This document shows positions 2,506 through 5,162 of a stretch of 64,000 bases of DNA, piece after piece. Both the position numbers and the translations under genes were made by a program. The stretch covers positions 22,802 through 86,801 of the forward strand of contig JAZLAF010000013.1 of the NCBI GenBank assembly GCA_045613045.1. Direction: 5' to 3'. This stretch comes from Acutalibacteraceae bacterium (GTDB lineage Bacteria > Bacillota > Clostridia > Oscillospirales > Acutalibacteraceae). The notes below the pieces were generated by a model. The model made no database searches, was not told where the DNA came from, and saw only the letters and a program-made list of their open reading frames with translations. The stretch's first letter is position 1. Each line of letters opens with the position of its first letter.

Positions 2506-3786
2506 ATGGCCACAAAAAATATACAGTTCAAAAGAAGATCGAGAGTTCCGAAAGCACCGATTATCGTTCTCAGCGTTGTAGTTGCTGCGGTTGTGGTTGC
2601 GGTATCAGTACTCTTGATTGTGCATTTCACAAAAGATAAGGAGCCTGCTGTTGATTTCGGCATGTGCACCTGGTCAACCGAGGGATTTGAAAACGTTTCA
2701 GACGTTAAAATCCTGAATGAATCGTTGGCAATTTATACAGATTCGGAAACGGGCAAAAAGGGTGTTATGAAGCTTGACGGCACTGTTACCGAAGAGGCGA
2801 TTCACGATGAATTCTCAGTTGCAAGTGATGCCTGGAGAAGCAAGAAACTTATTGCAAAAAGTGCAACCCTTTCCGAATATTATCTGCTCGTTGATGCCGC
2901 AACCGGTACGGTTACAACAAGACAGTATCACGGTCTCATGAAGCCTGAAAGCACCCCCTACTGGGAGGAAGAATACAAGCATTTTTCGTGGCACGATGCA
3001 AAGGGATATACGGGCAAGGTCAAAACAACCGACGTTTCTCTCGGCAGCGGACTTTATCCTGTTTCCTGCCCCCCTGCCGACGGCTCAAGATGGGGTTACA
3101 TCAACAATCAGCTCAAGCTCGAAATAGTTCTTGCATATGAAAAAGCTCTTGATTTCAGTGAGGGATACGCAGCTGTAAGCAAGGGCGGAAAATGGGGTTA
3201 TATCAACACAAGCGGAGTTACCGCAATCGGTTTCGATTTCGGTTCTGTAAGTGAGCTTGACGTTATGGGCGAGGATGTTGCATTTTCATTCCGCAACGCT
3301 CTTGCACCCGTCAAAAAAGGAGATTATTACGGTATCGTTACCCCCTCAGGCGAGTTGGTTGTTAACTTTGTTTTTGAAGCGATTCTTCAGGGCGAAAACG
3401 GAAAATATATTGCCAAAAGAGAAGGTAAGTGGGGCGTTATAACCGTTGATACACAAGCGATTTCAGAGAAATCCACTCAGAATGCGGCACCGTCACAGAC
3501 GGCAGCGGTAACAAACGTTTCCGTCGGATATTATGTTGTTAAAACCTCCGGCAGCCACCTCAATATGAGAGCAGATGCAAACACCGAAGCAACCAAGCTC
3601 GGTCAGATTCCCAACGGTGCATACGTTAACGTTACGAAGGCTATCGGAGGCTGGGCATACGTCAAATATAATAATCTTCAGGGTTGGGTAAGTGCAGATT
3701 TCCTTGAGAAAGCCACTCCCCCTGCCACTCAGGCACCGACTCAGGCAGAAACAACCGTACCTGTCGCAACAACACAAGCACAGTGA
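2506..3786 (+). CDS. Membrane-anchored WG-repeat protein with C-terminal SH3b domain
   Basis: N-terminal hydrophobic helix; repeats RWGYIN, DFSEGYAAVSKGGKWGYIN, KWGVI; SH3b-like LNMRADANTEATKLGQIPNG...GWAYVKY...GWVSADFL; GGAGG RBS. Confidence 0.8.
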   Translation: MATKNIQFKRRSRVPKAPIIVLSVVVAAVVVAVSVLLIVHFTKDKEPAVDFGMCTWSTEGFENVSDVKILNESLAIYTDSETGKKGVMKLDGTVTEEAIHDEFSVASDAWRSKKLIAKSATLSEYYLLVDAATGTVTTRQYHGLMKPESTPYWEEEYKHFSWHDAKGYTGKVKTTDVSLGSGLYPVSCPPADGSRWGYINNQLKLEIVLAYEKALDFSEGYAAVSKGGKWGYINTSGVTAIGFDFGSVSELDVMGEDVAFSFRNALAPVKKGDYYGIVTPSGELVVNFVFEAILQGENGKYIAKREGKWGVITVDTQAISEKSTQNAAPSQTAAVTNVSVGYYVVKTSGSHLNMRADANTEATKLGQIPNGAYVNVTKAIGGWAYVKYNNLQGWVSADFLEKATPPATQAPTQAETTVPVATTQAQ

Positions 3787-3839
3787 CGAAAAATCTGACA
3801 AATTAAGAAAAAATTAATCACTTTTTCTGCAATTAGCTA

Positions 3840-3868
3840 TTGACCTTTTGCGTAAAAGCGGATATACT
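3840..3868 (+). promoter_or_regulatory. sigma70/SigA-type promoter with no downstream ORF
   Basis: TTGACC (3840-3845), 17 bp spacer, TATACT (3863-3868), with an A/T-rich upstream tract. Confidence 0.7.
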
Positions 3869-3874
3869 CTTGTT

Positions 3875-3964
3875 GTGTGGTTAATCCATACATCTGCATT
3901 AGTGAGCAACAATGTAGAGCCATCCGATAAAAGACGGAGAACGAATTTGCGTTCTCCGTCTTTT
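3875..3964 (+). ncRNA. Putative orphan small RNA (~90 nt)
   Basis: Bounded by the promoter at 3840-3868 and the hairpin at 3926-3967. Two internal stems: GTGTGG/CCATAC and TCTGCATT/AATGTAGA. No RBS-led ORF inside. Confidence 0.5.
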
Positions 3965-3967
3965 ATC
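3926..3967. terminator. Bidirectional intrinsic terminator
   Basis: Perfect 18-bp inverted repeat GATAAAAGACGGAGAACG-AATTTG-CGTTCTCCGTCTTTTATC between convergent genes. Confidence 0.85.
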
Positions 3968-4019
3968 ATTTTACTGAAATAAAAACGGGGTGCTTCGTTT
4001 TCGGAAGCACTCCGTTAAT

Positions 4020-5102
4020 TTATCTATTCATAAAATCAAAGAGTCCGTGCCAGTCGTCACGGCAGAAATAGTGAGTACCTTCACGGGTACAGAGCCCTAC
4101 CCTGCCTTCGTGCAGATATTTCGGTTTGAGGAAATCGGAATCCTCGTAAACAAAGCCTTTTTCACCGTAAAGCTCGTAAACCTCCGACGCTGCGGCACAA
4201 CAGAGAAACTGTCTTGACGGGCCTGCCCAGATATCTTTGAGAGCAGAAGAAATATGCACCTTTCTCGGGGCAATCAACGCGTGCATAAAATGCTGGTCAA
4301 AGGGTGTTTCGTCATCCTTGTCGACGAAGGTTTTGTAGTTTTCGCAAAACCAGAAAGGAAAGTTCGTTGTGATGTGGCCGATGAACTCGTTTCCGTCAGT
4401 TTTACCTCTGTTTATTGAGTCACCGCTGCATCCTGCACAGTTGGAATGAGCCATGGAAAAACGTTCGTCAATTGCCGCGGTAAGAAGAGCTGTTTTGCCG
4501 AGTCTGGAGTGGCCTGCGACGCAGATATTTTTCTTATCAACCTCTCCCCTTGTCTGCAGAAAATCCATAATTCTCATTGCCGCCCAAGCCCACATTGCAA
4601 TCTTGCCGCAAGAGAAGGCTGAACGCTCTGATCCCTTATATATCAAGCCTGCCAGACCGTTTGAGAAGTCTCCGTCATCACTTGTAACGTCCTTGTAGCA
4701 GAAGGATGCGCAGGCAAATCCGTTATCGATAATTTCCTCTGTCGGGATGTATCTGTCGGGAATGTCGGGTCTGAAATTTATAACAACAAAGGTTTTGAAT
4801 TTTTCACCTTTTGTCGGATAAATATATGAGAAAGGGAACACGAATTCTTCGCCGTAAATGGTGCAGACAGCTTCCATTTTCAGATAGTCCGCTTTGCCTG
4901 CGCAGAAGCGTCCGTTTTCCGAATCAACAATGCGGAATTCGGTTTTTTCGGGTGCTTCGGGCATATATCCGTATTCATTTTCGAGCATTGATTTGAGCAC
5001 AAGAGGTCTGATTTTTTTCCATTCTTCAATCGTTTGCACTCTTCTGTCGCCAAGTTCAAGCGGAGAAGGGATTTTAAGGTCATCAAGCATTTTTTTAATC
5101 AT
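4020..5102 (-). CDS. CE15-like (glucuronoyl esterase family) alpha/beta hydrolase
   Basis: Nucleophile elbow GHSRLGK, KIAMWAWAAMRIMDFL, PFDQHFMHALIAPR, DIWA and GTHYF. Start placed at MIKKML (5102) because the -10 box at 5134-5139 lies downstream of the ORF-track start. Confidence 0.7.
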   Translation of the reverse strand: MIKKMLDDLKIPSPLELGDRRVQTIEEWKKIRPLVLKSMLENEYGYMPEAPEKTEFRIVDSENGRFCAGKADYLKMEAVCTIYGEEFVFPFSYIYPTKGEKFKTFVVINFRPDIPDRYIPTEEIIDNGFACASFCYKDVTSDDGDFSNGLAGLIYKGSERSAFSCGKIAMWAWAAMRIMDFLQTRGEVDKKNICVAGHSRLGKTALLTAAIDERFSMAHSNCAGCSGDSINRGKTDGNEFIGHITTNFPFWFCENYKTFVDKDDETPFDQHFMHALIAPRKVHISSALKDIWAGPSRQFLCCAAASEVYELYGEKGFVYEDSDFLKPKYLHEGRVGLCTREGTHYFCRDDWHGLFDFMNR

Positions 5103-5133
5103 AAAAAAGCCCCTTTGCGTTATTCTTAAAAAA

Positions 5134-5162
5134 ATTTTAATTCTTATCGCAGAGTTTGTCAA
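5134..5162 (-). promoter_or_regulatory. sigma70/SigA-type promoter of the esterase gene
   Basis: Minus strand TTGACA-17 bp-TAAAAT. Confidence 0.65.

Follow-up and report, generated by a model that had tools for sequence, protein, structure and literature searches.

The type I 3'-UTR-associated small RNAs of the enterobacteria, such as DapZ and MicL, are transcribed from promoters of their own and end at a terminator that is shared with the mRNA of the upstream gene. A second arrangement is found in Listeria, in which the SAM-riboswitch transcripts SreA and SreB, and likewise EutX/Rli55, are terminated leaders with a second role as small RNAs that act in trans. The Firmicutes also carry small RNAs of the RoxS/RsaE type, which are characterized by C-rich seeds, and the boxB hairpins in the nut sites of lambda and P22 present GNRNA pentaloops that are recognized by arginine-rich peptides. 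For the uncultured Clostridia of the gut, hardly any regulatory RNAs are known.

Features of each of these systems recur in a short locus within a 64,000-nt stretch of DNA from an Acutalibacteraceae bacterium (GCA_045613045.1, contig JAZLAF010000013.1, positions 22,802-86,801 of the forward strand), referred to below as the window. On balance, and with only modest confidence, this locus is read here as a stand-alone gene for a ~97-nt structured noncoding RNA that forms a new family of one uncultured genus and most likely acts in trans. In its layout it resembles both the small RNAs with their own promoter and a shared terminator and the terminated leaders, an analogy of arrangement that is accompanied by sequence or model similarity to none of them. 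As for DapZ and MicL, a dedicated promoter sits at the 3' end of a protein-coding gene, the terminator would be common to that gene's mRNA, and a conserved single-stranded segment lies upstream of the terminator; unlike for DapZ and MicL, the promoter is located after the stop codon instead of inside the coding sequence, the host belongs to an uncultured genus of Clostridia, and there is no sequence similarity, as judged by negative Rfam searches. With SreA/SreB and EutX/Rli55 the locus shares a promoter-proximal structured RNA whose intrinsic terminator stands right before downstream genes, making possible either a short RNA or a read-through mRNA; it departs from them in having no aptamer-like alternative fold or antiterminator, and in the lack of a downstream gene in 33 of 77 species. 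The likeness to RoxS/RsaE lies in a length of ~100 nt and in hairpins arranged around a short unpaired pyrimidine-rich motif and followed by an intrinsic terminator, and this motif, CCAUCC, could pair with purine-rich ribosome-binding regions. However, the motif does not consist of CCCC repeats, the Rfam RsaE model gives no match, and the start regions in the window's own genome were not found to be enriched in sites complementary to the motif. Finally, the invariant loop G-A-G-C-A of the second hairpin (P2) fits the GNRNA pattern of boxB, as would be expected of a loop recognized by a protein or an RNA. The likeness does not go beyond this pattern: neither a boxA-like partner nor an N-like protein or a phage context was found. 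A search of viral contigs returned no match to the RNA, and a mobile or phage origin of the element was rejected on this account.

Promoter, predicted transcript and distribution

A sequence-only reading of the window had proposed a self-contained promoter-to-terminator unit for a structured noncoding RNA of ~90-100 nt, a proposal now strongly supported by conservation of the element, its promoter, covariation in three helices and its absence from Rfam. The unit opens with a sigma-70-type promoter on the plus strand (3840-3868), composed of the -35 hexamer TTGACC (3840-3845), a 17-nt spacer and the -10 hexamer TATACT (3863-3868), and preceded by an A/T-rich, UP-element-like tract (3800-3839) in which a T-run gives way to an A-run. 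All of these elements are found where the initial reading had placed them. The two hexamers match the consensus at 10 of 12 positions, a match that by itself is not above chance (one found versus 2.2 expected in shuffles), and the case for the promoter comes from comparison across homologues and not from the single match: TTGAC-N17/18-TAnnnT stands at the same distance from the first hairpin (P1) in 77 of 77 distinct homologues, and the sequence of the spacer varies. Fixed hexamers around a variable spacer are the classic footprint of a functional promoter, and they probably mark a strong one here. In the majority of the 75 distinct promoters, TTGAC is immediately preceded by the T-run/A-run consensus (..TTTTTnAAAAAACTG), which suggests high-level, probably constitutive transcription. 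Driven by this promoter and its UP-like tract, transcription would begin just 5' of P1; as placed from the -10 element and the terminator, the predicted transcript of ~97 nt (3875-3972, plus strand) starts near G3875 and ends in a U-rich tail.

The promoter spacer also contains an imperfect palindrome, to which the initial reading had drawn attention. It is present in this copy, is not conserved, and across the homologues is no better than shuffled controls. As a candidate operator it was rejected: complementarity at four positions amounts to 57-73%, much of it contributed by the C after the -35 element and the GG before the -10 element, and the palindrome represents a weak tendency only.

The RNA element is single-copy in its own genome, where it scores 107.5 bits against the covariance model (G000:C13:26672-26771). 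The same model (R1) identified one copy each in 103 of the 132 genomes, or species, of the same Acutalibacteraceae genus. By BLASTN the element was detected in most genomes of the genus and nowhere else in the order, and a model search across the family (301 genomes from 185 genera) recovered no copy of the RNA outside the genus. Those covariance-model matches that did arise in the 185 other genera proved to be generic AAAAG-stem-CUUUU terminators of at most 40 bits. A scan of 185,579 species genomes for the exact core pattern returned 83 species-level MAGs, all of them labelled Acutalibacteraceae, Clostridia or Ruminococcaceae and mostly from the guts of ruminants or other animals. As far as these genome searches reach, the RNA family does not extend beyond a single uncultured genus of Acutalibacteraceae that inhabits herbivore guts, and on the grounds of this genus-restricted distribution the RNA is regarded as a lineage-specific invention of a subclade of that genus.

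No known RNA family had been recognized in the initial reading, and Rfam searches gave the same answer. With Rfam 15 at gathering threshold there are no matches in the window, the best sub-threshold matches in the window are terminator look-alikes of at most 28 bits, far under the family cut-offs, and in 16 homologous loci no match overlaps the RNA. No tRNA was found in the region, and a literature search yielded nothing relevant to the RNA. For a family absent from Rfam the comparative support is unusually clean, comprising ~100 species, a conserved promoter signature, three covarying helices and two invariant unpaired motifs, and the alignment of homologues constitutes a ready seed for a new Rfam family. 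Rfam matches beside the RNA in relatives (loci L166, 1087-1164; L170, 1617-1695; L174, 2135-2214) consist of a skipping-rope RNA (53.5 bits) near the element in one relative and, in two divergent species, an S10-Clostridia ribosomal-protein leader that follows the RNA in the same orientation at a distance of ~250-830 nt.

Fold and invariant motifs

The anatomy of the RNA was drawn from 77-92 homologues. Folding of the inferred transcript exactly reproduces the arrangement that had been deduced by inspection, namely P1, P2 and an 18-bp terminator, at -46 kcal/mol (z = -8.9), a value equalled by none of 200 shuffles. P1 (3874-3892) pairs UGUGUGG with CCAUACA around the loop UUAAU, GUGUGG occupying 3875-3880 and CCAUAC 3886-3891. 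Between species both the sequence and the loop (3-8 nt) of this hairpin vary and the pairing is kept, with compensatory changes at all 6 modelled pairs; in L019, L034 and L061, P1 is missing or vestigial. Because P1 varies freely yet stays paired, and is absent in three species, only its shape would seem to matter. This variable hairpin probably protects the 5' end of the RNA.

P2 (3893-3918) is formed by UCUGCAUU (3893-3900) and AAUGUAGA (3911-3918) and carries the apical loop GAGCA (3904-3908). Minimum-free-energy folds of ~33 distinct P2 variants, comprising 27 from alignment A1 and 6 divergent copies, present GAGCA or AGCA as the apical loop in all but two (G386 and G017). With the divergent copies included, compensatory changes are found at 5 of 9 pairs; the basal stem re-registers or compensates in these copies, and in nearly all variants a GAGCA loop closed by UUGU/ACAA is predicted. 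The unpaired P2 motif GAGCAACA is at least 97% invariant, and the loop GAGCA(ACA) is essentially so. The same degree of invariance, at least 97%, is displayed over 86 distinct sequences by the CCAUCC of the 7-nt linker (G/A)CCAUCC, which in the window reads GCCAUCC (3919-3925), is single-stranded in all folds, and may serve as a seed or a binding site. Of the 103 RNA-positive genomes, ~89 contain an exact match to the 13-mer AGAGCCAUCCGAU, a measure that is independent of the search pattern used.

The intrinsic terminator (3926-3972) consists of a perfect 18-bp stem (3926-3967), built from an A-tract/U-tract base and GACGGAGAACG/CGUUCUCCGUC, followed directly by AUUUU in a U-rich tail. Compensatory changes affect 12 of its 18 pairs and 99.4% of cells are paired, the apical GAA/UUCU being conserved; examples include the replacement of GGAG/CUCC by GCAG/CUGC, by AUAG/CUAU, or by GUAG/CUAC, the last also in a wobble form with CUGC. 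Over the RNA as a whole, alignment A2 displays compensatory changes at 23 of 33 pairs and 96% of cells paired, a level reached by none of 500 shuffles, although its counts derive from an alignment fitted to the covariance model and are biased toward structure. Slid controls of A2 are 36-52% paired. The unfitted MAFFT alignment A1 retains 10 compensatory pairs, again reached by none of 500 shuffles, and covariation in relatives extends to all three helices.

A pseudoknot between UUAAU of the P1 loop and AUUAG, suggested by the initial reading, can be drawn in this copy and did not hold up across homologues, where it is no better than shuffled controls: the P1 loops differ between copies both in sequence and in length, duplex energies average -0.14 kcal/mol, and values of -3 kcal/mol or below are reached in only 3 of 74 copies. 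The consensus motifs of ANTAR dual hexaloops and of RAT, PyrR and TRAP sites find no counterpart in P1 loops of 3-8 nt, a P2 pentaloop GAGCA, and hairpins that do not overlap the terminator. The RNA is pictured as one in which P2 would display the invariant pentaloop GAGCA, followed by the unpaired CCAUCC linker and then by a strong intrinsic terminator, with the linker, the loop or both contacting target mRNAs or a protein, most likely in trans.

Downstream genes and a possible role as a leader

The next gene downstream of the unit in the window is convergent, as the initial reading had stated: a glucuronyl-esterase-like gene occupies 4020-5162 on the minus strand (Pfam GCE_fung, 6.6e-30). 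The hairpin at 3984-4016 is a separate, minus-strand terminator of this gene, made up of a 7-pair minus-strand stem (4010-3990) and a T-run; it lies outside the RNA and is not conserved with it in relatives. A convergent neighbour marks the 'orphan' arrangement of the window's clade, and similar convergent ORFs are present in close relatives. The accompanying claim that the unit serves no protein gene stands for this clade and fails for 44 of 77 species, in which yaeI or sanA genes lie directly behind the unit. In these species a ribosome-binding site and start codon follow the terminator, at 6-59 nt (mostly 14-27) in 43 and at 143 nt in one, and the gene is either that of a YaeI-like metallophosphoesterase (29) or a SanA/DUF218 gene directly (15). 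In the loci that were inspected, a SanA-like gene comes next after the YaeI-like gene, which codes for a membrane protein; in one species the downstream position is taken by an amidase. The other 33 of 77 species, including that of the window, have convergent or unrelated downstream neighbours.

Within the gap between the terminator and yaeI/sanA, no promoter-like sequence was found in the leader-type species and there is no room for one, so these genes presumably depend on read-through. When mapped onto a tree of the upstream WG-repeat protein, the orphan arrangement requires only 2-3 origins, and most orphans form one large clade in which internal branches measure 0.24-0.42 substitutions per site and the RNA and its promoter are intact. 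This pattern suggests that the arrangement with yaeI/sanA downstream, kept in ~57% of species, is ancestral. The YaeI-like gene has been lost repeatedly (in L008, L009, L014, L016 and others), so that in these relatives the SanA-like gene now comes immediately after the RNA. On the WG-protein tree this requires at least 7-8 yaeI/sanA changes, and the envelope genes of the species concerned are without a promoter of their own. The element is therefore positioned between cell-envelope genes, with a WG/SH3 wall protein upstream and YaeI/SanA downstream, and this position offers a concrete entry point for studying how RNA may control the envelope in a lineage of the ruminant gut; the natural contrast between leader and orphan species also makes it possible to test how a leader turns into a small RNA that is autonomous.

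Much of this would be accommodated if the element were a cis-acting 5' leader or attenuator of yaeI-sanA, in which a protein or ligand binds the P2 loop and linker and modulates the terminator, the window's copy being a leader that has lost its gene. The tight spacing between terminator and ribosome-binding site fits a cis-acting leader equally well, and the restriction of the downstream genes to two families, the lack of both space and match for a separate promoter, and the apparently ancestral state of the leader arrangement all speak in its favour. This explanation is nevertheless judged rather unlikely. Nascent-transcript folds and RNAalifold on truncated alignments revealed no antiterminator partner for the 5' strand of the terminator, the only competitor of which is a UCCG/CGGA mini-helix of 4 bp, disrupted in several species, and no conserved alternative pairing was found for either terminator strand. 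The switch-like pairing of GUGGUU with AGCCAU, noticed in the initial reading, is possible in this copy, is not conserved across homologues, and is no better than shuffled controls (mean -4.15 versus -3.86 kcal/mol for shuffled arms). The RNA and promoter have remained intact throughout a deep clade in which the downstream genes are missing, and no riboswitch or leader in Rfam matches the element. Moreover, the window's own genome encodes sanA (C16:110615) and yaeI (C17:5488) away from the RNA with no copy of the RNA before either, sanA being preceded by a promoter-like sequence of its own.

A fold that is static and has no antiterminator leads to the view that the RNA molecule itself is what functions, and this fold, together with two invariant exposed motifs and persistence of the element after loss of the downstream genes, points to the autonomous, trans-acting RNA favoured here. 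Transcription of the yaeI/sanA envelope genes in leader-type species, which would occur by read-through only, would then be a side-function of position. From the comparisons among homologues we infer transcription of the unit, its action in trans and read-through beyond its terminator. A combination of the two explanations can also be envisioned, although it is considered decidedly unlikely: GAGCA and CCAUCC may form a docking site for a protein or small molecule that tunes read-through into yaeI-sanA, the RNA having been kept as a trans-acting or factor-titrating molecule in the clade without these genes. If true, the element would represent a new class of envelope-linked riboregulator.

The upstream gene, coding potential and candidate targets

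Upstream of the RNA, the window carries a gene for a 426-aa WG-repeat/bacterial SH3 protein, the SH3 part being of the cell-wall-binding type (2506-3786, plus strand; Pfam WG_beta_rep 1.2e-18, SH3_3 3.1e-13). The N-terminus of the protein is basic (MATKNIQFKRRSRVP...) and gives way to a hydrophobic stretch; weak NCBIfam matches relate the protein to the wall-binding SH3 portions of proteins of the EntFM/EntA type. In 19 of the 20 loci inspected the RNA comes directly after a WG/SH3 gene, and a list of ORFs around the RNA was also compiled for 65 loci. From the WG stop codon to the -35 element the gap measures 17-160 nt (median 39), usually without a terminator hairpin; for most of these gaps the folding energy lies between about 0 and -6 kcal/mol, and strong folds are confined to four gaps of 74-160 nt. 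Two hallmarks of 3'-UTR small RNAs were accordingly found at the locus, namely that usually no terminator separates the upstream stop codon from the small-RNA promoter and that synteny with the WG gene is kept. Since the WG mRNA has no terminator of its own, it would end at the terminator of the RNA, and the RNA would therefore also be the 3' UTR of the WG gene.

It could accordingly be supposed that the element exists to serve the WG-repeat/SH3 gene, as a structured 3' UTR and terminator, and that the promoter operates mainly for the downstream genes. This account draws on the constant position of the RNA directly after the WG gene and on the short gap, which obliges the WG mRNA to end at the RNA terminator, and is nonetheless improbable. 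It leaves unexplained why the -35, -10 and UP elements are kept in the orphan clade, in which nothing lies downstream. Terminator stems usually drift in sequence, and the most invariant part of the element is made up of unpaired motifs upstream of the terminator. In addition, members of the genus without the RNA carry a more distant WG orthologue (38-46% identity), and in the three such species with readable downstream sequence this orthologue is followed by an ordinary terminator or another gene. The possibility had been raised at the outset that the region is only the 3' UTR of the WG-repeat gene; it probably does provide the 3' UTR and terminator of that gene, and its conservation and covariation argue that it is not merely these. 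For a trans-acting RNA, ending the upstream WG mRNA would be an additional, positional side-function of the terminator.

That the locus instead encodes a small protein, by way of the 44-aa plus-strand ORF (3848-3982), the 51-aa minus-strand ORF (3814-3969) or the MSEPSDKRRRT frame from an ATG in P2, is barely credible, for although both ORFs are present and the only recurrent ATG, that within caATGtcagag, is frequent among relatives (L015), this ATG is directly followed by TAG in the present copy through a 1-nt deletion, reads ATT in several species and has no Shine-Dalgarno sequence before it, loop indels that are not multiples of 3 shift the reading frames, copies with ATCTTT or ATCGTC in the tail lack the minus-strand ATG, neither ORF has a Pfam match, and the substitutions follow compensatory base pairing and are not codon-like.

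Candidate targets of a trans-acting RNA were sought among 1,991 translation-initiation regions of the window's own genome. The start regions of WG, sanA and yaeI rank in the 36-72% range and are not predicted targets in this search. A perfect 13-nt complement of the linker region, AUCGGAUGGCUCU, occurs at C26:11085-11097, 25 nt into an ORF of 184 aa; none of the 131 other genomes of the genus contains it, and for this reason it is probably due to chance. The 184-aa product has a P-loop-like N-terminus. The best duplex among the initiation regions, at C23:31156, reaches -32.0 kcal/mol and is not significant alone, because 15 shuffled seeds gave minima of -25.7 to -32.0 kcal/mol and so equalled it. 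This 28-bp imperfect duplex (C23:31138-31166) involves the segment of the RNA between the P2 loop and the A-tract, both included, and covers the GGGUGG ribosome-binding site and the AUG of a 446-aa gene that, by eye from its sequence, we take to be glycoside-hydrolase-like.
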